Assembly (NCBI RefSeq): GCF_002854065.1
Contig: NZ_CP024147.1
Source: Escherichia coli
GTDB taxonomy: Bacteria > Pseudomonadota > Gammaproteobacteria > Enterobacterales > Enterobacteriaceae
Length of the DNA: 64,000 bases
Strand: one strand, 5' to 3'
Shown here in pieces: positions 4,608 through 16,997 of this stretch. Every line of letters starts with the position of its first letter. The first letter of the stretch is position 1. The notes beneath the pieces are model-generated. The model was given only the letters and a program-made list of their open reading frames with translations, ran no database searches and had not been told where the DNA came from. Made by a program: the position numbers and the translations under genes.

Positions 4608-5336
4608 TTAATCACTGAATACCAACGAATCTAATACACCTTGTCCACTATGAACTCCTCCTTCAACTGACTCTGCTGATTTGCTACGGATCAAATACCC
4701 AGCAAAACTGTGATCAGCGCTAGATGCATTGTTACCTATCTGGACGGAGAACATTCCTAGTTCGCTGACCAGATCAGTAACCTGATATAACTCCCCTTTA
4801 CGGACAACCAGAGAAGGTGTAGCTCGCGGGACAGGATGTATCCGACGCATGAACGACCAGGATTGATATTGCAGCGGGTCAAGTCTTGCCAGTTTTAACT
4901 GGATATCAGAGCCAAACAGACAATGCCCACCCCCTTCGCCCTGGTTTTTGAGAACCCATGAATCAGAAGGAGACTCTTTTACAATGCTGATTGTATCAGG
5001 GCTAACAGGAAGCATTTCGCCCAACACCATTTTTATGATATCAACCTCTTCCGGCTTCAGTCCAAAAGCAATCAGTTCATCGCACCCCAAATGAGAGAGC
5101 AACATTTGTACTCGCTTACTTGTCGCAAGTTGCTGAGCGACTGTTGCATTCACCGCAACTCGGTGCTGCTCAATCAATACTCGCGTGGCCATTAGCGTCT
5201 GGCAACACTCCTTCTCATTGAGACTGGCGGCTTCATAATCTGAGTATTGATATCCGGCACGTAAGTAAACAGAAGTAGTATGGGTGTATGAACTTGTCAT
5301 TGTTTTGACATTTATCAAATATATTCGATTATGCAT
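4608..5336 (-). CDS. Hypothetical protein (242 aa; the start may be Met12 at 5303)
   Basis: This is a long ORF convergent with the ATPase gene and divergent from arsR. I recognise no motif and see no TM segments. Confidence 0.45.
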   Translation of the reverse strand: MHNRIYLINVKTMTSSYTHTTSVYLRAGYQYSDYEAASLNEKECCQTLMATRVLIEQHRVAVNATVAQQLATSKRVQMLLSHLGCDELIAFGLKPEEVDIIKMVLGEMLPVSPDTISIVKESPSDSWVLKNQGEGGGHCLFGSDIQLKLARLDPLQYQSWSFMRRIHPVPRATPSLVVRKGELYQVTDLVSELGMFSVQIGNNASSADHSFAGYLIRSKSAESVEGGVHSGQGVLDSLVFSD

Positions 5337-5393: not shown

Positions 5394-5747
5394 ATGATGT
5401 CGCTTACTTCCCTACAACTCTTTAAGAATCTGTCTGATGAAACACGTCTGGGTATTGTTCTCATACTCAGAACTATGGGGGAGTTGTGCGTATGTGATCT
5501 TTGCACTGCACTTGATCAATCACAGCCTAAGATCTCCCGGCATCTGGCTATGTTGCGAGAAAGTGGGATTTTGCTTGATAGTAAACACGGTAAATGGGTT
5601 CATTACCGGTTATCCCCACACATTCCTTCATGGGCTGCACAGATTATTGAGCAGGCCTGGTTAAGCCAACAGGACGATCTTCAGGCCATCGCCCGTAAAC
5701 TGGCTTCAGTCAACTGCACTAACAGCAGTAAGGCTATTTGTATTTAA
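5394..5747 (+). CDS. arsR: ArsR arsenite-responsive repressor (R773 type)
   Basis: The 117-aa protein has the ELCVCDLC As(III) site and the LDQSQPKISRHLAMLRESGIL HTH. It is the first gene of arsRDABC. Confidence 0.95.
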   Translation: MMSLTSLQLFKNLSDETRLGIVLILRTMGELCVCDLCTALDQSQPKISRHLAMLRESGILLDSKHGKWVHYRLSPHIPSWAAQIIEQAWLSQQDDLQAIARKLASVNCTNSSKAICI

Positions 5748-5793
5748 AAATTTGCCTGAATATATATGATTTCCCACATATGAGGTATTGAGA

Positions 5794-6156
5794 ATGAAAA
5801 CGCTAGCGGTATTCGACCCGGCAATGTGTTGTAGCACCGGTGTCTGCGGTACTGATGTCGATCAGGCTCTGGTTGATTTTTCCGCGGATGTGCAATGGCT
5901 GAAACAACGAGGTGTTCAGGTAGATCGTTTCAATCTGGCACAGCAACCGATGAGCTTTGTCCAGAACGAGAAAGTTAAAGCATTTATTGAGGCTTCTGGT
6001 GCGGAAGGGCTGCCATTACTGTTACTGGATGGCGAAACAGTGATGGCCGGGCGTTATCCGAAACGGGCTGAACTTGCACGGTGGTTTGGAATTCCGCTGG
6101 AGAAAGTAGGATTAGCGCCTTCAGGCTGCTGCGGTGGTAATACTTCTTGTTGTTAA
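5794..6156 (+). CDS. arsD: ArsD arsenic metallochaperone
   Basis: MKTLAVFDPAMCCSTGVCG carries Cys12/13/18, and the C-terminal tail is GCCGGNTSCC. The protein is 120 aa. GAGG lies 8 nt before the ATG at 5794; the track start at 5788 is a TTG. Confidence 0.93.
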   Translation: MKTLAVFDPAMCCSTGVCGTDVDQALVDFSADVQWLKQRGVQVDRFNLAQQPMSFVQNEKVKAFIEASGAEGLPLLLLDGETVMAGRYPKRAELARWFGIPLEKVGLAPSGCCGGNTSCC

Positions 6157-6173
6157 GTATGTCAGGAGGACAT

Positions 6174-7925
6174 ATGAAATTCTTACAGAACATCCCCCCT
6201 TATCTGTTTTTTACTGGTAAAGGAGGCGTTGGTAAAACCTCTATTTCCTGCGCCACGGCGATCCGTCTGGCAGAACAGGGTAAACGAGTGCTGCTGGTCA
6301 GTACCGATCCGGCCTCAAACGTAGGCCAGGTCTTTGGCCAGGTTATTGGCAATACTATTCAGCCAATAGCCACTGTTCCTGGATTGTCGGCACTTGAGAT
6401 TGATCCTCAGGCCGCTGCGCAACAGTACCGGGCCAGAATCGTTGACCCTATTAAAGGTGTCCTGCCTGATGACGTCGTTAGCAGCATCAACGAACAACTG
6501 TCTGGTGCATGCACAACAGAGATTGCGGCTTTTGATGAGTTTACCGGATTACTGACAGACGCCTCTTTGCTGACCCAGTTTGACCATATCATCTTTGATA
6601 CCGCGCCAACCGGCCATACTATTCGCCTTCTCCAGTTGCCAGGCGCCTGGAGCAGCTTTATTGACAGCAATCCCGAGGGCGCATCCTGCCTCGGCCCGAT
6701 GGCGGGGCTGGAAAAACAGCGTGAACAGTATGCCCATGCCGTTGAAGCACTGTCCGACCCAGCGCGTACCCGCCTGGTTTTAGTTGCCAGACTGCAAAAA
6801 TCCACCCTGCAAGAAGTCGCCCGAACTCATTTAGAACTCGCCGCAATTGGCCTTAAAAATCAGTACTTGGTCATTAATGGCGTTCTGCCCAAAACTGAAG
6901 CGGCAAACGATACACTGGCTGCGGCTATATGGGACCGTGAACAGGAGGCGCTGGCCAATCTTCCTTCTGACCTTTCCGGTCTGCCAACTGACACGTTATT
7001 CCTCCAACCACTCAATATGGTCGGCGTGGCTGCATTAAGTGGGCTTCTCTCCTCTCAGCCTGAGGCAGCATCATCTTCTGAAGAATACATTCAGCAACGA
7101 CCTGAAATTCCGTCGCTCTCAGCGTTAGTCGATGATATTGCCCGTAACGAACATGGTCTGATAATGCTAATGGGCAAAGGCGGTGTGGGGAAAACCACGA
7201 TGGCGGCAGCCATTGCCGTCAGACTGGCCGAAATGGGATTTGATGTCCATCTGACCACCTCAGATCCAGCAGCACACCTCAGCACAACCCTGAACGGTAG
7301 CCTTAACAATCTGCAGGTCAGTAGAATCGATCCTCACGAGGAAACAGAACGCTATCGTCAGCATGTTCTTGATACCAAGGGTGGAGAACTGGATGAAGCG
7401 GGTAAACGCCTGCTGGAAGAAGATTTACGCTCTCCTTGTACCGAAGAGATTGCGGTCTTCCAGGCCTTTTCACGGGTGATTCGTGAAGCGGGTAAGCGCT
7501 TCGTGGTCATGGATACGGCACCCACCGGGCATACCCTACTGCTGCTGGATGCCACCGGGGCGTATCACCGCGAAATTGCTAAGAAAATGGGCGATAAAGG
7601 CCATTTCACCACGCCAATGATGCAGCTTCAGGACCCGGAGCGAACCAAAGTGTTACTGGTCACGCTGCCGGAAACCACGCCCGTGCTTGAGGCGGCAAAT
7701 TTGCAGGCCGACCTTGAACGCGCAGGGATTCATCCCTGGGGCTGGATTATCAATAACAGCCTTTCCATTGCGGATACCCGTTCGCCGCTGCTTCGTCTGC
7801 GGGCGCAACAGGAACTTCCGCAGATCGAGAGTGTTAAACTCCAGCATGCCAGTCGCGTAGCTCTTGTTCCTGTACTGGCGTCAGAACCGACCGGCATCGA
7901 CAAACTCAAACAACTCGCTGGTTAA
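6174..7925 (+). CDS. arsA: ArsA arsenite-stimulated pump ATPase
   Basis: The 583-aa protein has two halves, each with GKGGVGKT and DTAPTGHT. The metalloid-site cysteines are in [14 protein letters not shown] and RSPCTEE. AGGAGG precedes the ATG at 6174. Confidence 0.95.
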
Positions 7926-7972
7926 TTATTGTCATTACTCGGGGCAGCTTTGCTGCCCTTTCGGGAGGTTAT

Positions 7973-9262
7973 ATGTTACTGGCAGGAGCCATTTTTATCC
8001 TGACCATCGTGTTGGTTATCTGGCAGCCAAAGGGATTAGGCATTGGCTGGAGCGCCACGCTGGGTGCCGTACTGGCTCTGGCATCGGGTGTGATTCATAT
8101 CGCCGATATTCCGGTGGTGTGGAATATCGTCTGGAACGCCACGGCCACCTTTATTGCCGTCATTATCATCAGTCTGTTGCTGGATGAGTCCGGCTTTTTT
8201 GAATGGGCTGCACTGCACGTTTCCCGCTGGGGCAATGGGCGTGGACGTCTGCTATTTACCTATATTGTTCTGCTCGGCGCGGCGGTGGCGGCATTGTTTG
8301 CCAACGATGGCGCGGCGTTAATTCTGACGCCGATCGTTATCGCCATGCTACTGGCGCTGGGATTCAGTAAAAGCACCACGCTGGCTTTCGTGATGGCCGC
8401 AGGGTTTATTGCCGATACCGCCAGCTTGCCACTTATCGTATCGAACCTGGTCAATATCGTTTCGGCTGATTTCTTCAAACTGGGATTCACGGAGTATGCG
8501 TCAGTTATGGTGCCGGTGGATATTGCCGCCATTGTCGCCACGCTGGTGATGCTGCATCTTTTTTTCCGCAAAGATATCCCGCCCACTTATGAGCTGGCGC
8601 GACTGAAAGAACCCGCAAAAGCCATCAAAGATCCTGCGACGTTCAGAACCGGCTGGGTTGTGCTCCTCCTTCTGCTGGTCGGTTTTTTTGTCCTTGAGCC
8701 GATGGGGATCCCTGTGAGTGCGATTGCGGCAGTGGGGGCGGCAATCCTGTTTGCGGTGGCCAAAAAAGGTCATGGTATTAACACCGGTAAAGTGCTGCGC
8801 GGCGCGCCCTGGCAGATCGTGATCTTCTCACTGGGGATGTATCTGGTGGTATACGGGTTGCGTAACGCCGGTCTGACGGATTATCTCTCTGACGTGCTGA
8901 ACGTACTGGCAGATAAAGGACTGTGGGCCGCGACGCTGGGGACAGGATTCCTGACTGCATTCCTCTCTTCTATCATGAACAATATGCCGACCGTACTGGT
9001 TGGCGCACTGTCGATTGATGGCAGCACCGCGACCGGCGTTATCAAAGAAGCGATGATTTATGCCAACGTCATTGGCTGCGATCTGGGGCCGAAAATCACC
9101 CCTATTGGTAGCCTGGCGACACTGCTCTGGCTGCACGTGCTTTCACAGAAGAATATGACAATCTCGTGGGGATACTACTTCCGCACCGGGATTATCATGA
9201 CCCTGCCTGTGCTGTTTGTAACGCTGGCTGCGCTGGCGCTACGTCTCTCTGTCACTTTGTAA
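7973..9262 (+). CDS. arsB: ArsB arsenite/antimonite efflux permease
   Basis: This is a 429-aa polytopic membrane protein sitting between arsA and arsC, and the sequence is recognised as ArsB. Confidence 0.95.
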
Positions 9263-9274
9263 TGAGATTCTGAT

Positions 9275-9700
9275 ATGAGCAACATCACTATTTATCACAA
9301 CCCAGCCTGCGGCACCTCGCGTAATACGCTGGAGATGATCCGCAACAGCGGTACCGAGCCGACCATTATTCTTTACCTTGAGAACCCACCTTCGAGGGAT
9401 GAATTGGTCAAACTCATTGCCGATATGGGTATTTCAGTACGAGCGCTGCTGCGTAAAAACGTTGAGCCTTACGAGCAACTGGGTCTTGCAGAAGATAAAT
9501 TTACTGACGATCAGCTCATCGACTTTATGTTGCAACACCCAATTCTGATTAACCGTCCGATCGTGGTTACGCCGCTGGGAACCAGACTGTGCCGTCCTTC
9601 TGAAGTGGTTCTGGATATCCTGCAGGATGCGCAGAAAGGGGCTTTCGCTAAGGAAGACGGTGAAAAGGTCGTTGATGAAGCAGGAAAACGGCTGAAATAA
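9275..9700 (+). CDS. arsC: ArsC glutaredoxin-type arsenate reductase (full length, copy 1)
   Basis: MSNITIYHNPACGTSRNTLEMIRNSG... carries the catalytic Cys12. The protein is 141 aa. Confidence 0.95.
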   Translation: MSNITIYHNPACGTSRNTLEMIRNSGTEPTIILYLENPPSRDELVKLIADMGISVRALLRKNVEPYEQLGLAEDKFTDDQLIDFMLQHPILINRPIVVTPLGTRLCRPSEVVLDILQDAQKGAFAKEDGEKVVDEAGKRLK

Positions 9701-9703
9701 ATA

Positions 9704-9727
9704 ATAAGGGGGCGAATGCCCCCTTAT
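9704..9727. terminator. Bidirectional hairpin terminator between arsC and the convergent acetyltransferase gene
   Basis: ATAAGGGGGCGAATGCCCCCTTAT forms a GC-rich 8-10 bp stem flanked by A/T runs. Confidence 0.7.
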
Positions 9728-9734
9728 TCGTACC

Positions 9735-10271
9735 TCAGAGCATCATGCCTGAATCCGATGGTAACGTGCTGTTCCCTTCGCCCAGATTTCGTTGCAGCAA
9801 CACTGTGTCAAGCCAACGACCATGCTTGAAGCCAATATTTTTCAGCGTACCAATCTCAGTAAATCCAACCTGCTGATGGACTTTCAGCGAACCTTGATTA
9901 TTGCTATCGCCGACAATAGCAATCATCTGCCGATAGCCGTGAGTTTCTGCCCAGGCAATGACGTAGCGCAGCAACGCTTTTCCTGTCCCCTGACGCTGTG
10001 CGTCCGGGTGAATATAAATCGAATCTTCGAGAGTGTGGCGGTAGGCGTAGCGTTCACGGTAACGAGTGAGATAACAATACCCGATAACCTTTTCTTCCTC
10101 TAACGCGACAACCCACGGTAGCGCCTGATTGCGGATCTTTTTCAGGCGGGTAAGCATCTCGTGGGTATCCGGAGGTTCAGTTTCAAAGCTGGCGGTACCG
10201 TGAAGAACATGATGGGCGTAGATATCGCGTATAGCGGGGATGTGCTTTTCTTCTGCGTTAACGATTTTCAT
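9735..10271 (-). CDS. arsN: GNAT N-acetyltransferase of the phosphinothricin-acetyltransferase (PAT/MddA) family; ArsN1-like by context
   Basis: IRDIYAHHVLHGTASFETEPP... and QRQGTGKALL...GYRQMIAIVGDSNNQGSLKVHQQVGF resemble PAT/YncA. The gene is adjacent to ars genes. Confidence 0.65.
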   Translation of the reverse strand: MKIVNAEEKHIPAIRDIYAHHVLHGTASFETEPPDTHEMLTRLKKIRNQALPWVVALEEEKVIGYCYLTRYRERYAYRHTLEDSIYIHPDAQRQGTGKALLRYVIAWAETHGYRQMIAIVGDSNNQGSLKVHQQVGFTEIGTLKNIGFKHGRWLDTVLLQRNLGEGNSTLPSDSGMML

Positions 10272-10435
10272 TGTTCTGTTCCCGTTGGCATCTTTTTCAA
10301 GGTTACTTGAAAATCCTGAGGAAAGGTAAATACAAAAGCTTATGACCCAATAAGCAGGCTAATCTTCAATCCCATCTTTTGTTTTCATTCATGCAGGGAG
10401 ACAAATATGTGCTTCCAGTATCCTTATTTTTTATG

Positions 10436-10479
10436 TTACCTTTTCCGTTATGTCTAAAATGACATAACGGAAAAGGTAA
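10436..10479. promoter_or_regulatory. Perfect 19+19 bp palindrome (6-bp spacer) overlapping the ribosome-binding site of the TauE-family gene; candidate operator or RBS-sequestering hairpin
   Basis: The sequence is TTACCTTTTCCGTTATGTC-taaaat-GACATAACGGAAAAGGTAA. It ends 4 nt before the ATG at 10484. Confidence 0.6.
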
Positions 10480-10483
10480 ACCC

Positions 10484-11308
10484 ATGTCCTCAGAATCAAA
10501 ACGGAACGGAAAAGGTTTTTTATCAGGCACGTTAATCGGTGCTTTAGGCGGCTTAATTGGCCTCGGTGGCGCTGAGTTCCGCCTTCCCGTCCTGATGGGT
10601 AGTTTCAAAATGCCGACGCTTGAAGCGGTTATTTTTAACAAAGCGATGAGCCTTACTGTTGTCGCTGTTGCTTTGATATTCCGCACAAAATCCATCGCCG
10701 TCGACCAGCTGTTTGCTCATCTTGATATTGTCATCAATTTGCTGGCCGGGAGCCTTATAGGTGCATGGTGGGCAGCAGGAAGAGCCATAAAAATGTCCCG
10801 TATTTGGCTGGACAGAACCATTCTGCTCCTGCTTGTTATCCTGTCATTCGTCATGTTTTCAGAAGCATTGATGCCTCTGCATGATAGCTCCGCTGGATTA
10901 TTCCAGCCCGGAATCGCGACCATTATTGCGGGTGTTATTGCGGGTGTTATTGCGGGTTTCTTCATCGGGAATGTTGCTGCTTTGCTGGGTGTTGCAGGGG
11001 GAGAGCTCCTGATACCAACTATCGTTATCCTTTTTGGGGCTGACATTAAACTGGCTGGCAGTTTGTCACTCATGATCAGTTTACCGACGATGATTGTGGG
11101 GTTCTCTCGCTACACTAATGCAGATGCTTTCCAGATCCTGAGAAAAGAGAAAAAACTTTTTGTGTGGATGGTCATCGGTTCCGTTATAGGTGCCGCTATT
11201 GGGGGCCTTATGCTCGGTATGTTCCCGGTAAGAGTACTTATGACTCTGTTAGGCGCGGTACTTCTTATTTCCGCGATCAAAACCTTTAAGCATACCCGGC
11301 AAAGATAA
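10484..11308 (+). CDS. TauE/SafE (DUF81) family anion-exporter-like membrane protein
   Basis: The 274-aa polytopic protein has internally duplicated G-rich motifs: GALGGLIGLGGAEFRLPVLMG and LLGVAGGELLIPTIV. Confidence 0.7.
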   Translation: MSSESKRNGKGFLSGTLIGALGGLIGLGGAEFRLPVLMGSFKMPTLEAVIFNKAMSLTVVAVALIFRTKSIAVDQLFAHLDIVINLLAGSLIGAWWAAGRAIKMSRIWLDRTILLLLVILSFVMFSEALMPLHDSSAGLFQPGIATIIAGVIAGVIAGFFIGNVAALLGVAGGELLIPTIVILFGADIKLAGSLSLMISLPTMIVGFSRYTNADAFQILRKEKKLFVWMVIGSVIGAAIGGLMLGMFPVRVLMTLLGAVLLISAIKTFKHTRQR

Positions 11309-11370
11309 TAGCCGTTTACGCTTTGGACTATTCCGCATTACAGAGAAAATGATTTCGAAAAGGTATCAGA

Positions 11371-11739
11371 ATGAAAAAGAATCCCCTTAAATCAAACTTA
11401 ATCTTAGTCAGACCGAGGATCTATATTAACGACAACATCTCGCTGGGGCCGGGGAAGGTTGACCTTTTAAGGGCGATTGATGGCTTTCACTCTCTTTCTG
11501 CGGCAGCTAAAGATTTGGGGATACCTTATAAAAAAGCATGGCTCTTAATTGACACTTTGAATAAAGGGATTGGTCAGCCAGTTGTAACCACTTCCACTGG
11601 TGGTAACAAGGGCGGTGGTACAGTTCTGACGCCATTGGGGCGTAGCCTGCTGATCTGGTATGACCAGGCCGAGGCCCACCTCAATGAGCAATCTCAGCAA
11701 CAGTTAATCGAACTTGAAAAGATTCTTTTTGGAAAATGA
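11371..11739 (+). CDS. ModE N-terminal-domain-like wHTH regulator lacking Mop/TOBE ligand domains
   Basis: SLSAAAKDLGIPYKKAWLLIDTLNKGIGQPVVTTSTGGNKGGGTVLTPLGRSLL parallels ModE SISQGAKDAGISYKSAWDAINEMN...ATGGKGGGGAVLTRYGQRL. The protein is only 122 aa. Confidence 0.7.
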   Translation: MKKNPLKSNLILVRPRIYINDNISLGPGKVDLLRAIDGFHSLSAAAKDLGIPYKKAWLLIDTLNKGIGQPVVTTSTGGNKGGGTVLTPLGRSLLIWYDQAEAHLNEQSQQQLIELEKILFGK

Positions 11740-11784
11740 CAGAGACCTTTGTTATCCATCGGGAAAATAGAGTGACAGCAATGC

Positions 11785-11810
11785 ATGAAGGGGGCTAATG
11801 CCCCCTTCAT
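11785..11810. terminator. Bidirectional hairpin terminator between the modE-like gene and the convergent arsA2
   Basis: ATGAAGGGGGCTAATGCCCCCTTCAT has the same AAGGGGGC-NAAT-GCCCCCTT core as the hairpin at 9704. Confidence 0.65.
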
Positions 11811-11812
11811 TA

Positions 11813-13570
11813 TTACTTCGCCATTTCTTCCAGCAGGTCAATACCAACCGGCTCTTCGCTCTGTAGCGCTGTTAATGCAATACGCTTTGCATACTGCTCT
11901 TCCACATCAGAGATGAGAGGCAGCTCGCGGTTAGCTCTGGTCTTCAGGAAAGGTGAAGACGGCTCAGCAGCTGCCAGGCTGTTATTCACAACCCATGCCC
12001 ACGGCTCAATGCCAGCCCGACGCAGATCCTGCTGCAGGTTAGCGGCTTCCAGTACAGGTGTCGTTTCGGCAAGCGTCACGATAATCACCTTCGTCTTCTC
12101 CGGGTCCTGCAATTGCATCATTGGCGTCATCACATGGTCATGTGTTTGCCCCATCTGGCGCACCATTTCCCGGTGATAGGCTCCAGTCGCATCCAGTAGC
12201 AGAAGTGTGTGACCCGTTGGCGCGGTGTCCATAATGACAAAATGATCGTCTGCCTCTTTGATTATCCGCGAGAATGCCTGGAAGACGGCGATCTCTTCAG
12301 TACATGGTGAGCGGAGATCTTCTTCCAGCACCGCCAGCCCCTCAGCGTCTAATCCTTTGCCCTGATTCTCCAGTACAAAACGGCGATAACGCTCTGTCTC
12401 CACCTTCGGATCGATACGGCTGACCTGCAGATTTGGCAGCGAGCCATCCAGCGTGTAAGACAGATGTGCTGCCGGATCGGACGTGGTCAGATGGACTTTA
12501 TGACCGCGTTTTGCCAGCGATACCGCGACCGATGCTGCAACAGTCGTTTTGCCCACGCCGCCTTTCCCCATCGTCATTACCAGCCCTTTGCCTGTCAGAC
12601 TGAGTTCATCCACTAACGAGGAAAGTTTCGGTAAATCCAGAGCATTTAGCGTTGTATTGGAGAGAGACAGTGGCGCTTTGCTCTCTGTTAATAACTCTCG
12701 CAGGGCTTCCAGACCGACCAGATTAAATGGCTTCAGAGACAGCTGCGAGCGGGGAAGATTAACCAGATTATCAGGCATTGCCTGTAATGCTTTTTCTTCC
12801 CGAGCCAGAATACTTTGCGCCAGTGGATCATTTTCACCGGCAAACGGTGGCAGCACACCATTAATGGCAAGGTGTTGATGCTGCAAACCAATAGCAGAAA
12901 GCTCATCGTGCGTATGAGAAACCTCTTTCAGCGTTGAAGCCTGAGCTCGGGCAACCAGCACTAAGCGTGTGAGAGCTGCGTCGGACAGCGCTTTAACCGC
13001 ATCGGAGTACTGGTGCTGTTGTTTCTCAAGCCCTACCAGAGGTCCAAGGTTTGCAGCGGCATCAGGGTTCGCTTCGAGATAACCGCTCCAGGCTCCCGGC
13101 AATTCAAGCATGCGGATGGTGTGACCGGTTGGCGCGGTATCAAATACGATATGGTCATATTTTCCCCGCAGCTCATGATTGGTCAGCAGACCAGTAAACT
13201 CATCAAACGCAGCGATTTCCGTGGTGCATGAGCCGGAAAGCTGCTCTTCAATGCTGCTGACCACATCGGCTGGCATCAGCCCGCGAACAGGGTCGAGCAC
13301 ACGGTCACGATAGGCTTGCGCTGCAGCCATCGGATCAACTTCCATCGCGGCAAGATTTTCTACAGTACTGATATCTGTGATTCGGTGGCCGATAGTCTGG
13401 CTAAATACCTGGCCGACATTGGAAGCCGGATCGGTACTCACCAGAAGCGTTCTCTTACCCTGATCGGCCAGCCATACTGCAGTAGCACAGGCCAGGGATG
13501 TCTTACCCACTCCACCTTTACCAGTGAAGAAGATGAACGGGGGAATGTCTTTTAAAAATGGCATATTCAT
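11813..13570 (-). CDS. arsA: ArsA-family ATPase, second divergent copy lacking the Cys172 equivalent
   Basis: The protein has two GKGGVGKT / DTAPTGHT halves. SGSCTTE and RSPCTEE are present, but ANPDAAANLGP aligns with [11 protein letters not shown] of copy 1. GAGGAG precedes the ATG at 13570 (MNMPFLKD...). Confidence 0.9.
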   Translation of the reverse strand: MNMPFLKDIPPFIFFTGKGGVGKTSLACATAVWLADQGKRTLLVSTDPASNVGQVFSQTIGHRITDISTVENLAAMEVDPMAAAQAYRDRVLDPVRGLMPADVVSSIEEQLSGSCTTEIAAFDEFTGLLTNHELRGKYDHIVFDTAPTGHTIRMLELPGAWSGYLEANPDAAANLGPLVGLEKQQHQYSDAVKALSDAALTRLVLVARAQASTLKEVSHTHDELSAIGLQHQHLAINGVLPPFAGENDPLAQSILAREEKALQAMPDNLVNLPRSQLSLKPFNLVGLEALRELLTESKAPLSLSNTTLNALDLPKLSSLVDELSLTGKGLVMTMGKGGVGKTTVAASVAVSLAKRGHKVHLTTSDPAAHLSYTLDGSLPNLQVSRIDPKVETERYRRFVLENQGKGLDAEGLAVLEEDLRSPCTEEIAVFQAFSRIIKEADDHFVIMDTAPTGHTLLLLDATGAYHREMVRQMGQTHDHVMTPMMQLQDPEKTKVIIVTLAETTPVLEAANLQQDLRRAGIEPWAWVVNNSLAAAEPSSPFLKTRANRELPLISDVEEQYAKRIALTALQSEEPVGIDLLEEMAK

Positions 13571-13590
13571 CAGTGATAGCTCCTCTGGAA

Positions 13591-13953
13591 TTAAGGCATA
13601 CGTGGAATGCTGCAGCAACGCGGTTGCGTACTGTCTTCACTCCAGTCCTGAGTTAGCGGAATATCTGCCCAACGGGCGATATCTTCACGAGTCGGCAGTT
13701 TGCCTGCCATCACCAGCTTGCCGTCGAGCAAGGTGACAGGGAGGGATTCCATCCCTGATGTGTTCATAAACTCTTTGATTACAGGGGTATTCAGGAACTG
13801 CTGCGGGTTTTTCGCAAGGCTGTAGCGCTGAATATCAACGCCATTCTTTTTCGCCCATTCGGCGCTGGCATTCCATTTGACGGCTTCGTCGCTCACCACA
13901 ACGCTGCTGGTTGCGCAGCAGCCTGCTGCTTCAAAGATCTCAATTTTTGACAT
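13591..13953 (-). CDS. arsD: ArsD-family metallochaperone, second divergent copy (Cys12-Cys13 kept, residue 18 is Val)
   Basis: The 120-aa protein begins MSKIEIFEAAGCCATSSVVV. Its thioredoxin-like core aligns to ArsD (LPVTLLDGKLVMAGKLPTREDIARW). The C-terminus is PRCCSIP. Confidence 0.8.
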   Translation of the reverse strand: MSKIEIFEAAGCCATSSVVVSDEAVKWNASAEWAKKNGVDIQRYSLAKNPQQFLNTPVIKEFMNTSGMESLPVTLLDGKLVMAGKLPTREDIARWADIPLTQDWSEDSTQPRCCSIPRMP

Positions 13954-13958
13954 GGATT

Positions 13959-14002
13959 GTTTACCTCAGTGTTTAGTCATTTGGCTTTACACTGAGGTAA
14001 AC
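13959..14002 (-). promoter_or_regulatory. 13-bp perfect stem-loop in the sigma-arsD2 spacer whose 3' arm contains the arsD2 Shine-Dalgarno
   Basis: On the mRNA strand the sequence is GTTTACCTCAGTG-(18 nt)-CACTGAGGTAAAC, followed by AATCC-ATG. No U-run follows. Confidence 0.5.
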
Positions 14003-14028
14003 GAAGGTGGTGGGAAAAAGATGCGCGA

Positions 14029-14574
14029 TTAATTCATTTTTTTGTGGCAGCAGACAAAAGATGTGTCATCCGCCTCAATCTGGCAGAGTTCTGTCATCGT
14101 CTCTTTCAGGTGTTTTCTGGCCCGAAGTAGTCGGGATTTAAACGCTGTAAGCGTGATTCCCCATTCATCGGCCAGGGACTGCTGGGGACGCCGGTTAAGG
14201 TCGGACTCTTCAATCAACCACCGCTCATCTTCGGGTAAAGCCTGTAATGTTTCAGGCAGGCAAATATCCAGTGTTGAGATTGCATCAAGGGATGCGTCTG
14301 TTAATAGGGCATCTTCTTCCAGCTCAACAAACGCCCTGGTGGTTCGGTACTCATCAATCAGCAGATTCCTTGCTACCCGATACAACCAGGCTCGCGGATT
14401 TTCCATCTCACAAAAAATGTCTGAATGGGCTCGGGCACGCAGGAAAAGGTCTTGCAGAAGGTCTGCTGCTTTTTCGCTATCGCCTGTCTTCGATATCAGA
14501 AAGCGAGAAAATTCGCCTTCATGCTGCCGCCAGAACACGCTCATACAGCTGTTGAATGCTGTTATGTCACTCAT
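14029..14574 (-). CDS. ECF-type sigma-70 family factor with a C-terminal Cys-x10-Cys-Cys extension
   Basis: Region 2 is DLLQDLFLRA...AWLYRVARNLLIDEYR. Region 4 is LPEDERWLIEESDLNRRPQQSLADEWGITLTAFKSRLLRARKHL. The tail is LCQIEADDTSFVCCHKKMN. The likely ATG is at 14574, 8 nt after the arsH stop. Confidence 0.8.
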   Translation of the reverse strand: MSDITAFNSCMSVFWRQHEGEFSRFLISKTGDSEKAADLLQDLFLRARAHSDIFCEMENPRAWLYRVARNLLIDEYRTTRAFVELEEDALLTDASLDAISTLDICLPETLQALPEDERWLIEESDLNRRPQQSLADEWGITLTAFKSRLLRARKHLKETMTELCQIEADDTSFVCCHKKMN

Positions 14575-14582
14575 ACTAACCT

Positions 14583-15293
14583 TCAAATTTTGCTCTGATT
14601 AACCCGTCGGGAAAGTTCTTCTGCAGACTCTTTTCGTTCACTGTAGCGATCGACAAGATAGGCAGAATTTGCCCGGGTCAACAATGTAAACTTCATCAAT
14701 TCTTCCATCACATCCACGATGCGGTCGTAATATGGTGACGGTTTCATACGTCCATCGTCATCAAACTCCTGCCAGGCTTTTGCTACCGAGGACTGGTTCG
14801 GAATAGTGATCATTCTCATCCAACGACCAAGCACGCGCATCTGGTTGACTGTGTTGAATGACTGGGAACCTCCACACACTTGCATAACAGCCAGAGTTTT
14901 TCCCTGAGAAGGACGAACAGCACCTTCAGATAATGGTATCCAGTCAATTTGTGCCTTCATAATACCAGTCATCGCTCCGTGTCGTTCCGGAGAGCACCAC
15001 ACCATTCCTTCAGACCAGCGGACCAGTTCACGCAACTCCATAACTTTTGGATGTGACTCCGGTGCATCATCAGGAAGTGGAAGGCCAGATGGATTAAAAA
15101 TGCGGACTTCTGCGCCCATCGCAGTTAACAACCGACCAGCTTCCTCTGTCGCCAGTCGACTGTATGAGCGCTCACGAACTGAGCCATAAAGCATTAGTAT
15201 ACGAGGGGGGTGAGATATTGTCGGTATCCCCATTTTTTGCTCAGTTATTGCAGCATCAAATAAATCAGGAACTATATTATTTAGCTTATTCAT
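14583..15293 (-). CDS. arsH: ArsH NADPH-dependent FMN reductase / organoarsenical oxidase
   Basis: [18 protein letters not shown]...[23 protein letters not shown] is typical of ArsH. The protein is 236 aa. Confidence 0.9.
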
Positions 15294-15391
15294 TTTTTAT
15301 TTTCCCTATAGATTCGGGATCTTAGTAGGATGGATTCAGACGGTTCGATGCAGCTTTCGTCAATCATGACAGTTATGAGTTTTTCGGTTAC

Positions 15392-15715
15392 TTATCCATT
15401 TTTGCCAGCGGGTTCCGTAACATCTGTTTTACTGTTTACACAGCACTCTTCACGTAAGAATTCGATGATAGCTTCCAGTATTTCGTATTGAGAGACGCAC
15501 ATGAGCGTTCGACTCTCCCGGTTTTGTGTGACGAGTCCTACTGATACTAAGGCTGAAATATGATGACTTAACGTTGATGAGGGAATGCCAAGCTGCTTTT
15601 GCAATTCACCTACAGGCAAACCTTGTTCTCCAGCTTTTACAAGATGTTTGAATATGAACAAACGGGTCGGGTGACCCAGCTCTTTTAGTGCTTTAGCTAC
15701 TTCTTCCAATTGCAT
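15392..15715 (-). CDS. arsR: ArsR/SmtB-family repressor, second type (C-terminal vicinal Cys pair, no CVC site)
   Basis: HPTRLFIFKHLVKAGEQGLPVGELQKQLGIPSSTLSHHISALVSVGLV is an ArsR-type wHTH. REECCVNS lies near the C-terminus. The protein is 107 aa. Confidence 0.85.
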   Translation of the reverse strand: MQLEEVAKALKELGHPTRLFIFKHLVKAGEQGLPVGELQKQLGIPSSTLSHHISALVSVGLVTQNRESRTLMCVSQYEILEAIIEFLREECCVNSKTDVTEPAGKNG

Positions 15716-15736
15716 GTGACAACCCTCTGTCTAATG

Positions 15737-15795
15737 ATATTTCGATAATACCAGAAATATCTTGACCAGAATTATATTTCGATTATTCTAGAAAT
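15737..15795. promoter_or_regulatory. Divergent promoter region with two tandem 22-24 bp operator-like repeats, 37 bp apart
   Basis: ATATTTCGATAATACCAGAAAT is at 15737-15758 and ATATTTCGATTATTCTAGAAAT at 15774-15795. Each has the internal dyad ATTTC-N10-GAAAT. TTGACC at 15762-15767 lies between them. Confidence 0.6.
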
Positions 15796-15820
15796 GTAGA
15801 TTTTGTCAAGAGGGTTTAGT

Positions 15821-16954
15821 ATGAATAGTTGGATTTCTATGCTGCAAGATGCCGCAGAGATGTTTTTGTTTTTGGCCGTCGAGCTATCTTTGCTGTTTAT
15901 TGTCATCAGTGCCGGTGTGAGCCTGATAAGGCAAAAGGTCCCGGACCATAAAATCCAGCAATTGTTGGGGGCGAAAAAAGGAAAAGGCTACCTGCTGGCC
16001 TCGTTGTTGGGAGCCGTTACCCCTTTCTGTAGTTGCTCAACAATTCCAATGCTACGAGGGTTGTTGTCGGCGAAAGCAGGGTTTGGTCCGACACTCACTT
16101 TTTTGTTTGTTTCACCGTTGCTTAATCCCATTATCGTGGGGTTAATGTGGGTTACCTTTGGCTGGAAAGTAACTTTGTTGTACGCGATCATCGCTGCCGG
16201 TGTCTCAGTCCTTGCCAGTATCGTATTGGATTTACTAGGATTTGAACGTCATATTGTTGATCACAAAAACTCAGCATCAAGTGGTTGCGCCACCAAATGT
16301 GATGATTCCGAAGCTTCGGTAAAAACGTCGGCGGGTTCCAGTTGTTGCAGCACTAGCTCGACTCAATTGCCTGTAAAAACGAGTTGCTGTACTTCATCAG
16401 CGAACCCCATAATTAACTTAAGGACGGTAAAGAACGAGCAGAACGTATCAACGTGTTGTTCATCAATATCATCTGAACAACCAGCTGTTAGCTGTTGCAG
16501 CAGCGAGAATCTGGGCAATGTGAATCTCACACCGAATACCACCTCTGGCCCAATAAAGTTAGCTATGAAAGATGCCTTACAGCAGTTTAAGGATGTTCTG
16601 CCTTATCTTTTGTTAGGTGTATTAATAGGTTCATTTATTTATGGCTTTATCCCTTCAGAGTGGATTGCAGCTCATGCCGGAGCAGATAATCCCTTAGCCA
16701 TACCGCTGAGTGCAGTTGTTGGTATTCCGTTGTATATACGCGCAGAGGCAGTGATACCACTTGCATCAGTGCTGATGACTAAAGGAATGGGCCTGGGGGC
16801 ATTAATGGCCTTGATAATCGGTAGTGCTGGAGCGAGTTTGACAGAAGTAATACTGCTTAAATCAATGTTCAGAATGCCTATGATAGTCGCTTTTCTGACA
16901 GTTATCTTAGGTATGGCAATTCTAATGGGTTATCTGACTCAATTCTTGTTTTAA
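15821..16954 (+). CDS. ArsP-like (UPF0718/DUF318) permease with a Ser/Cys-rich central loop
   Basis: The motif TPFCSCSTIPML lies in an early TM segment and the protein has multiple TM helices. A ~75-aa loop carries GCATKC plus four (S/T)CC(S/T) pairs. The ATG at 15821 is preceded by AGAGGG; the track start at 15803 is a TTG. Confidence 0.7.
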   Translation: MNSWISMLQDAAEMFLFLAVELSLLFIVISAGVSLIRQKVPDHKIQQLLGAKKGKGYLLASLLGAVTPFCSCSTIPMLRGLLSAKAGFGPTLTFLFVSPLLNPIIVGLMWVTFGWKVTLLYAIIAAGVSVLASIVLDLLGFERHIVDHKNSASSGCATKCDDSEASVKTSAGSSCCSTSSTQLPVKTSCCTSSANPIINLRTVKNEQNVSTCCSSISSEQPAVSCCSSENLGNVNLTPNTTSGPIKLAMKDALQQFKDVLPYLLLGVLIGSFIYGFIPSEWIAAHAGADNPLAIPLSAVVGIPLYIRAEAVIPLASVLMTKGMGLGALMALIIGSAGASLTEVILLKSMFRMPMIVAFLTVILGMAILMGYLTQFLF

Positions 16955-16966
16955 AGCATTACAACA

Positions 16967-16997
16967 AGGGTCTTCTGCCTCAAGATCGAAGACCCTT
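16967..16997 (+). terminator. Hairpin terminator after the ArsP-like gene
   Basis: AAGGGTCTTC-tgcctcaagat-CGAAGACCCTT lies 13 nt after the stop codon. Confidence 0.55.

Follow-up and report, generated by a model that had tools for sequence, protein, structure and literature searches.

A two-cysteine ArsD-ArsA pair genomically linked to ArsB in a mosaic arsenic island of Escherichia coli

Which carrier does an ArsA ATPase serve when its own operon encodes none? The question is raised by an arsenic island in a 64,000-nucleotide stretch of E. coli DNA (contig NZ_CP024147.1 of assembly GCF_002854065.1; hereafter the window), which matches the E. coli CUWW06 chromosome at 100% identity. Its arsenic cluster is approximately 94.6% identical to that of IncI1 plasmid R64 and is found on many other plasmids. 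In the window, a minus-strand operon, arsR2-arsH-sigma-arsD2-arsA2 (11813-15715), ends in a second ArsD-like chaperone gene and a second ArsA-like ATPase gene. As an earlier note on this DNA had claimed, it includes neither arsB nor acr3, which was confirmed by hidden Markov model (HMM) searches and tblastn. Across the entire window, tblastn detects a single ArsB and a single ArsP, and neither a second ArsB nor any Acr3.

HMM searches recovered every gene named in that note where it had been placed, including a divergent gene for an ArsP-like permease (15821-16954, plus strand) and a gene for a TauE/TSUP membrane protein convergent with arsA2 (10484-11308, plus strand). Two main options had been left open: ArsA2 borrows the ArsB of the neighboring arsRDABC operon, or it energizes the ArsP-like permease. 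The first gains from a constant arsB linkage and from a reduced locus in Cedecea. The second loses ground, as ArsP is mostly absent from related loci, its gene occurs in stand-alone divergons, and the window arrangement is a mosaic.

Linkage of the arsD2-arsA2 cassette to arsB

In every intact locus examined, arsD2-arsA2 lies tail-to-tail with an arsB operon; the comparison covers about 20 distinct lineages of intact loci, with ArsD2 proteins 60-100% identical. The facing unit in the window is the classical arsR1-D1-A1-B-C operon (5394-9700, plus strand; HMM searches), whose arsB occupies positions 7973-9262 on the same strand (NF011980, 728 bits). The cassette is likewise convergent with arsRDABC in all 13 species-representative Enterobacterales genomes (L012-L024; ArsD2 88-96% identical), and the same arsB-convergent layout is retained in two more distant loci (L028 and L029; ArsD2 61-62% identical). 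It recurs on R64 and on a Klebsiella IncFIB(K) plasmid (L114), which belongs to a 90-95% identity band of approximately 1,000 PLSDB records, as well as in the published annotation of pBIC1a (PMC6286996). The ArsD2 genome scan itself returned close relatives only, namely, the 13 Enterobacterales and one unrelated Clostridia ArsD; the distant loci were reached by a protein search and contig look-ups.

The most reduced version of the locus was found in Cedecea davisae (L112, L030, and L031). Here, only sigma-arsD2-arsA2 remains, facing arsC-arsB-arsR, in a locus between tRNA-Tyr genes and narGHJI that has no ArsA1, ArsD1, ArsP, or ArsH. Apart from ArsA2, no ArsA is encoded near ArsB, and the 16-kb stretch has no ars-type carrier besides ArsB. 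The Cedecea locus is preceded by two tRNA-Tyr genes and a third, partial copy of the tRNA 3' end (L112, 2940-3570), which looks like the integration scar of a small island.

In CUWW06, the borrowed carrier could come from a single place. The island arsB is the sole arsB in the chromosome record, with a single arsB place in NZ_CP182139.1. The island, whose own integrase gene is located at 17413-18756, adjoins the remnants of the native ars locus of E. coli (23000-24853), where arsR and arsB are gone and a truncated arsC is left (24404-24853; the first 123 codons, followed by IS1). Because the native arsR and arsB are missing and arsC is truncated, the island is the only ArsB source of this strain.

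Since ArsB is the conserved genomic partner of the pair, we propose a route that leads from ArsD2 through ArsA2 to ArsB. ArsA2 most likely feeds the neighboring ArsB, an assignment that we make with moderate confidence and infer from genome comparison. ArsD2 would take up trivalent arsenic and pass it to ArsA2. Like ArsA1, ArsA2 would hand it on to ArsB, though its regulator differs and its affinity may differ as well. The composite island, of which the region studied here would be the right-hand part, could then be described as three separable modules. The classical operon would supply the carrier. The gene for an extracytoplasmic function (ECF) sigma factor, together with arsD2 and arsA2 and usually located after arsR-arsH, would contribute a second chaperone/ATPase pair without a carrier. 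Finally, arsR2 and the ArsP-like permease gene would form an independent divergon encoding a secondary carrier that needs no ATPase. In the R64-type lineage, this divergon took the place of the original arsR at the head of the second module. ArsR2 would now govern arsP together with the arsH-sigma operon, which gives the ATPase and the permease the look of one unit.

Several observations weigh against ArsB as the partner. In the window, ArsA2 shares the ArsR2 regulon with ArsP, and ArsB is under ArsR1. The loss of ligand cysteines in ArsD2 (Cys18) and ArsA2 (Cys172), described below, and the cotranscription of arsH would fit two-coordinate organoarsenicals, and ArsB reportedly accepts inorganic As(III) only (PMC6953987). 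In addition, Plesiomonas shigelloides carries arsP with arsD-arsA and without ArsB or Acr3 within 10 kb (L106), which keeps ArsA-ArsP coupling alive. A physical ArsA-ArsB complex is undemonstrated even for the canonical ArsA (PMC12415280). The PDB contains ArsB alone (10tp and related entries) and ArsA alone (1f48, 9nbl, and others like them), with no complex of the two and no ArsP relative. The support for the ArsA2-ArsB pairing is linkage, and linkage is not interaction.

The earlier note had started from the view that ArsA works usefully only while docked to a carrier, which is overstated. A stable complex of ArsA with ArsB is so far undemonstrated, and the present model is a transient hand-off (PMC12415280, PMC13381914). 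This makes partner promiscuity plausible: ArsD2 and ArsA2 could be carrier-agnostic and transfer arsenic transiently to ArsB, Acr3, or ArsP, so that both ArsB and ArsP would gain in the window. The AlphaFold 3 ipTM (interface predicted template modeling score) of below 0.6 for ArsA-ArsB and the proposal of transient hand-off or local concentration (PMC12415280, PMC13381914) are in line with this, as are the reports of ArsA with two unrelated carriers, ArsB and Acr3 (PMC6953987; PMC2963123). The cassette itself has no fixed carrier, adjoining ArsB always, Acr3 in L026, and ArsP in the R64 type. However, the ArsB linkage is constant and the others are sporadic, which suggests a preferred partner. 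Moreover, ArsB and Acr3 take inorganic As(III) and ArsP reportedly does not (PMC6205960), so that one site would have to serve different substrates. Overall, we consider a carrier-agnostic pair rather unlikely.

In L026 (8619-12183) and L027 (Salmonella/Citrobacter, IncFII-like contig), an acr3 gene has been inserted between the sigma gene and arsD2 (Acr3, TIGR00832, 349 bits against a cutoff of 283), and the promoter-like motif that precedes arsD2 (see below) is duplicated with the same spacing before it. That Acr3, a carrier specific for As(III), joined the same promoter motif points to export of inorganic As(III). It also recalls the ArsA-Acr3 system of Alkaliphilus metalliredigens (PMC2963123, PMC6953987), where ArsA can serve a carrier other than ArsB, and L026 has acr3 directly before arsD2-arsA2; the window differs in having no acr3.

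A two-cysteine chaperone and ATPase pair

The arsA2 gene (11813-13570, minus strand) is intact and encodes a two-domain ArsA ATPase of 585 amino acids (TIGR04291, 944.1 bits against a cutoff of 650). Its product is 64% identical to ArsA1 of the island, which is of the R773 type, and an alignment of the two shows that ArsA2 retains both GKGGVGKT P-loops and both DTAPTGHT motifs. The upstream arsD2 gene (13591-13953, minus strand) encodes an ArsD-family metallochaperone of 120 amino acids (PF06953, 103.3 bits against 27). ArsD2 is 39% identical to ArsD1 and scores 84.4 bits with the NCBIfam equivalog NF033727, under the cutoff of 90; RefSeq names it "ArsD family protein."

Both proteins lack one of the three cysteines that mark their families. 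ArsA2 keeps Cys113 and Cys422 and has an asparagine at position 172, a substitution shared by all 24 clade members examined, so that the Cys113-Cys172-Cys422 ligand set is incomplete. Cysteines at these three positions are present in most full-length ArsA representatives, down to approximately 35% identity. In ArsD2, Cys12 and Cys13 are kept and Cys18 is removed by a two-residue deletion in all clade members, which leaves two residues of the As(III) site Cys12-Cys13-Cys18. The C terminus of ArsD2 reads CCSIPRMP and preserves the C-terminal cysteine pair. ArsD2 and ArsA2 are therefore a distinct two-cysteine lineage. The joint loss is notable because the three conserved ArsA cysteines bind As(III) in a three-coordinate fashion, as seen by cryo-electron microscopy and X-ray absorption spectroscopy (PMC12415280). 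It might reflect a changed affinity or a fit to two-coordinate organoarsenicals.

The latter possibility can be extended to a pair of two-thiol proteins tuned to two-coordinate trivalent organoarsenicals, for instance methylarsenite [MAs(III)] or reduced roxarsone [Rox(III)], delivering these compounds to the ArsP-like permease in R64-type islands. Consistent with this, the third ligand is lost in both proteins, arsH is cotranscribed, and ArsP is in the regulon. ArsR2 has a C-terminal cysteine pair without an equivalent of Cys102, comparable to the MAs(III)-selective SpArsR (PMC11868830). The plasmids are also frequently found in bacteria associated with poultry and swine. If true, the two-thiol pair and ArsP would make up the first ATP-driven organoarsenical pump, coexpressed with ArsH under a two-cysteine-type ArsR and an ECF cascade. 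Against it stand the unvarying linkage to ArsB, the insertion of acr3, and the lack of both ArsH and ArsP in the Cedecea locus, and we regard this specialization as quite improbable.

The pair could also be a redundant, decaying duplicate with little contribution to resistance. Indeed, arsA2 is frameshifted on the Klebsiella IncFIB(K) plasmid L114 (9382-11132), which keeps ArsA1, and on the Salmonella Infantis pESI plasmid L115 (9384-11139), where the arsRDABC side has been replaced by IS26. It is also split into two open reading frames (ORFs) in the pBIC1a annotation (PMC6286996), and progressive erosion of the region by IS26 and IS1 is seen in IncI plasmids. The L114 frameshift fits functional overlap, or redundancy, with ArsA1. 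However, neither the window nor any of the 24 other aligned loci has a disrupted arsA2, and all catalytic motifs are kept. The clade-specific substitutions are fixed in members as little as 61-80% identical, implying that a distinct function has long been maintained by purifying selection. In addition, ArsA2 is the sole ArsA of the Cedecea locus. Decay is therefore a very improbable explanation for the cassette.

When set against the ArsAB arsenite/antimonite pump encoded by the arsRDABC operons of R773 and R46, ArsA2 is likewise a full two-domain ArsA with P-loops, DTAPTGHT motifs, Cys113, and Cys422. An ArsD homolog stands immediately upstream, as is nearly always the case for arsD and arsA (PMC6205960), and ArsB is encoded next door. 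Unlike in the R773/R46 system, the window arsB belongs to a convergent operon and not to that of ArsA2, Cys172 of ArsA2 and Cys18 of ArsD2 are missing, and arsD2-arsA2 is preceded by a gene for an ECF sigma factor and by an ECF-like promoter instead of being directly under ArsR.

The ArsP-like permease and the origin of the arrangement

The idea that ArsA2 energizes the ArsP-like permease had been presented in the earlier note as a new ATPase-permease combination; with ArsD2 included, the proteins would form an ATP-driven pump, possibly for trivalent organoarsenicals. Such coupling had already been put forward by Castillo and Saier in 2010, who proposed that ArsA energizes ArsP from the co-occurrence of arsA and arsP and from congruent trees, including a group with Aeromonas, E. 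coli, and Yersinia (PMC2963123), and it was repeated by Ben Fekih and colleagues in 2018 (PMC6205960). The idea and the type of evidence are the same, and the window permease corresponds to their long form of ArsP, which has approximately 400 amino acids and a hydrophilic insert of about 100 residues between transmembrane segments 4 and 5 (PMC2963123). No experimental test of ArsA-ArsP coupling was found in the literature searched, and Yang and Rosen (2016) do not mention ArsP.

The permease gene (15821-16954, plus strand) encodes an ArsP-family protein of 377 amino acids (PF03773, 186.3 bits against 32.3, residues 16-381), which falls below the cutoffs of the related SO_0444 and SaoE equivalogs. 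Its hydropathy profile has four plus four hydrophobic segments. The sequence TPFCSCSTIP (residues 67-76, with Cys70 and Cys72) is invariant in seven relatives; a two-cysteine motif of the (T/M)PFCSCS type in an early transmembrane segment of ArsP was reportedly described by Chen et al. in 2015. Between the two halves, a central loop of about 100 residues (146-245) carries 10 cysteines (four CC pairs and a CxxxC) and 23 serines. Among the relatives, this loop is hypervariable in length and sequence, and the membrane core is approximately 90% conserved. The loop may be a built-in thiol trap for arsenicals.

By family, the substrates of the permease are most likely trivalent organoarsenicals. It belongs to the same Pfam family, PF03773, as Campylobacter jejuni ArsP (CjArsP), which exports MAs(III) and Rox(III) and not inorganic As(III), a property known for CjArsP alone (PMC6205960), and both are under ArsR control. 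The window permease differs from CjArsP in being a long form, with the Ser/Cys-rich loop and its 10 cysteines.

Genomic context was examined for permease relatives that are 62-76% identical. In Aeromonas veronii (L007 and L008), the arsR/arsP divergon is isolated, the surrounding 10 kb being free of further ars genes, and several metagenome loci (L091-L099) have the same arrangement. It adjoins arsRBC without any ArsA in Escherichia fergusonii (L006; L041-L062) and arsRDABC in a Citrobacter prophage. Other loci have an operon arsR-arsD-arsA-arsB-arsP (L100-L105) or an arsP that faces an arsR...arsD-arsA...acr3-arsC cluster (L073 and others). The invariant unit across these relatives is an arsR facing an arsP. 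Because it is often found without a nearby ATPase, the permease would be a self-sufficient secondary carrier, which is consistent with CjArsP (PMC6205960). The metagenome scan based on the ArsP alignment stayed inside a subclade of 62-100% identity, and the comparison therefore does not extend to families of short ArsP forms or to the arsA-arsP operons from archaea and staphylococci cited by Castillo and Saier.

Most arsD2-arsA2 loci lack ArsP. The gene is absent from all 13 species-representative genomes (L012-L024), where mobile-element or unrelated genes lie upstream of the cassette, and from L028-L031, L112, and L114. Its presence beside the cassette is restricted to the R64-type lineage (the window, L002-L005, L026, L032, L033, L115, and L116). 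Plasmids that carry the cassette and ArsP without arsB have been cut by IS1, IS26, or Tn3 elements. Compared to the proposal of Castillo and Saier, the wider sampling here shows the cassette and the arsR-arsP divergon to be independent, with the two together in one lineage only.

Sequence identities reveal how they came together. ArsH, the sigma factor, ArsD2, and ArsA2 of the window are 87-97% identical to those of Citrobacter- and Klebsiella-type operons (L012-L018 and L021-L023). ArsR2, on the other hand, shares only 58-65% identity with the leading ArsR of those operons, and 58-69% across the ArsR proteins that lead other arsH-sigma-arsD2-arsA2 operons in general. With the ArsR found beside ArsP in Aeromonas, E. 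fergusonii, and Citrobacter, its identity is 88-92%. These two histories indicate that an arsR2-arsP divergon replaced the original arsR. A second exchange is apparent in L026, whose flanks are close to those of the window (ArsB 99%, ArsA1 100%, ArsP 94%, and ArsH 96%) and whose cassette is divergent (sigma 77%, ArsD2 72%, and ArsA2 86%), showing that the cassette is exchanged independently of both carriers. The window arrangement is thus a recombinant mosaic, in which ArsP is a separate module juxtaposed to the ArsA2 operon by recombination. Because the loci are mosaic, congruence of ArsA2-ArsB or ArsA2-ArsP trees would be meaningless as a sign of coevolution.

Encoded at 15392-15715 on the minus strand, ArsR2 is an ArsR/SmtB repressor (NF033788, 63 bits). 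The 105-bp gap between arsR2 and arsP (15716-15820) contains overlapping divergent sigma-70-like promoters and two conserved palindromes of the form ATTTC-N10-GAAAT, ATATTTCGATAATACCAGAAATAT and ATTTCGATTATTCTAGAAAT, at 15739-15758 and 15776-15795. These are the sole copies in the window, where 0.16 would be expected by chance, and both are kept in the arsR/arsP gaps of Aeromonas, E. fergusonii, and Citrobacter. The shared arsR2/arsP operator suggested in the earlier note is therefore plausible.

ArsR2 has cysteines at position 73 and in a C-terminal pair, Cys91-Cys92. With no cysteine downstream of that pair and a conserved Cys73 upstream of it, it departs from the type 2 site of AfArsR, Cys95-Cys96-Cys102 (PMC11868830). 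It resembles SpArsR of Shewanella putrefaciens, a two-cysteine repressor selective for MAs(III), in its C-terminal vicinal pair and in lacking an equivalent of AfArsR Cys102 (SpArsR as described in PMC11868830). Like SpArsR, ArsR2 would also control an arsP gene; it differs in having the extra conserved Cys73, a possible third ligand.

ArsA2-ArsP coupling can thus draw on one control region with two ArsR-type palindromes shared by arsP and the arsA2 operon, on ArsP being a family of MAs(III)/Rox(III) permeases (PMC6205960), and on cotranscription of the organoarsenical oxidase ArsH. ArsD2 and ArsA2 each have two of the three ligand cysteines, and two thiols suffice for MAs(III), as in SpArsR (PMC11868830). 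Castillo and Saier also report that the ArsA and ArsP trees agree and that two operons combine arsA with arsP while lacking arsB and acr3 (PMC2963123). The best natural candidate for such coupling is a conserved four-gene cluster in Plesiomonas shigelloides (L106, 7153-11065), in which arsP faces arsR-arsD-arsA; the adjacent gene for a major facilitator superfamily (MFS) protein pairs with a LysR regulator. No ArsB or Acr3 was found within 10 kb of this cluster, leaving ArsP as the sole ars-associated carrier over that distance, and the literature search returned nothing on arsB or acr3 elsewhere in this species.

However, the Plesiomonas ArsA and ArsD are of the ordinary three-cysteine type, and this ArsA is 84% identical to one in an Aeromonas-type cluster that includes acr3. 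ArsP is missing in most cassette loci (among them the 13 species representatives, Cedecea, and the sampled Klebsiella plasmid), the nearest permease relatives function without a nearby ArsA, and the juxtaposition in the window came from an arsR2-arsP module swap. In addition, the carrier gained inside the operon in L026 is Acr3 and not ArsP, and the sigma-type promoter motif was not found before arsP. Taken together, this makes ArsA2-ArsP coupling decidedly unlikely, and ArsB is retained as the preferred partner.

Regulation and context of the island

The cassette appears to have a promoter of its own. Upstream of arsD2, the sigma gene (14029-14574, minus strand) encodes a SigZ-like ECF-type sigma factor with no adjacent anti-sigma gene. 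The protein matches PF04542 (Sigma70_r2) and PF08281 (Sigma70_r4_2) as well as TIGR02937 (60 bits against 43), and with regions 2 and 4 only and approximately 180 amino acids, it belongs to the ECF class (group 4). It does not reach the cutoff of the SigZ equivalog TIGR02959 (131.9 bits against 168.65). The gene is present in every version of the cassette (L012-L031 and L112). Further upstream, arsH (14583-15293, minus strand) encodes a member of the NADPH-FMN reductase/organoarsenical oxidase family (TIGR02690, 403.6 bits against 292.25).

A 75-bp gap separates the sigma gene from arsD2. It contains a promoter-like motif, GCATCTTTT-N11-TCGTTTAC (13997-14024, minus strand), that shows the ECF-like spacing ATC-N16-CGT; its consensus across loci is GCATCyTTT-N11-TCGTTTAC. 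The motif occurs once in the 64-kb window, even when three mismatches are allowed, and was not found before arsP, arsB, or tauE. It is kept in 23 related loci, down to 60% ArsD2 identity. We infer that the sigma factor encoded in this operon recognizes the motif. Expression would probably run as a cascade: once ArsR2 is released, arsH and the sigma gene are transcribed, and their sigma factor product then acts on the promoter before arsD2-arsA2. In uninduced RNA sequencing data of pBIC1a, expression declines along the operon, with values of 47 (sigma gene), 9 (arsD), and 4 (arsA) (PMC6286996), which fits a separate arsD-arsA transcription unit.

The same gap can form an RNA hairpin with a 14-bp stem (13959-14002, minus strand; -22.4 kcal/mol, z-score of -6.95). 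The 3' arm takes in the Shine-Dalgarno sequence of arsD2 (GAGG, 13964-13967), and the 5' arm shares bases with the -10-like element, so that read-through transcripts would fold the hairpin and transcripts started at the motif might not. Speculatively, the hairpin may be a translational gate that buries the arsD2 ribosome-binding site. Its sequence is conserved, with weak covariation (one compensatory pair), and an Rfam search of positions 9600-17400 gave no family for it, only chance miRNA-like matches. At the other end of the operon, a strong, bidirectional terminator-like hairpin (11785-11810; 11-bp stem with seven G-C pairs) closes the minus-strand transcript 3' of arsA2, in the gap to a ModE-like gene.

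Beyond this hairpin lies an insert (9735-11739) that, by HMM searches and locus comparison, is confined to R64-type variants and stands outside the conserved cassette. It comprises an ArsN1-like GNAT gene (9735-10271, minus strand), the TauE/TSUP gene, and a gene for a winged helix-turn-helix regulator resembling the ModE N terminus (11371-11739, plus strand; HMM searches). The TauE/TSUP protein, which the earlier note had considered as a coupling partner, is a membrane protein encoded convergently with arsA2. However, TauE and its ModE-like neighbor occur only in the R64-type variant; both are absent from L005, L012-L024, L028-L031, L112, and L114. The TauE gene further lies beyond the strong terminator, with a candidate regulator of its own. 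The TauE/TSUP family is not known to have a role in arsenic handling. Coupling of ArsA2 to this protein is not credible, its probability being close to nil, and TauE was rejected as a partner since it is not conserved with the cassette.

Three further features were observed around the operons. The GNAT protein (9735-10271), encoded between both ars operons, resembles the arsinothricin-resistance enzyme ArsN1 and phosphinothricin acetyltransferases, scoring 145 bits with NF040504, under the cutoff of 210; a homolog is kept in L020, L023, L024, and L029. Directly upstream of arsR1, a 242-amino-acid ORF (4608-5336, minus strand) matches only the C-terminal half of a eukaryote-type glutathione synthetase (TIGR01986, positions 263-471). 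Finally, the match between NZ_CP182139.1 and the window spans 7,702 against 7,701 bases, with the extra base somewhere in the arsH-arsR2 gap (15294-15391).

In the literature, the names arsA2 and arsD2 were found in Listeria surveys only, and the region appears to be a sequenced, annotated, yet uncharacterized variant of a known system. Its distribution is wide: in PLSDB, genes of the ArsD2 clade (at least 60% identity) occur in 1,263 plasmid records and genes of the ArsP clade in 644. As the carriers include Klebsiella IncFIB(K), IncI1 R64-like, and Salmonella Infantis pESI plasmids, the cluster travels alongside antibiotic resistance genes. What looked like an orphan ATPase is recast as a member of a two-cysteine lineage with a putative promoter of its own and a constant genomic partner in ArsB, which lends itself to concrete experiments. 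At the same time, the 15-year-old proposal of ArsA-ArsP coupling is tempered, since its best-known enterobacterial example is a recombinational juxtaposition.

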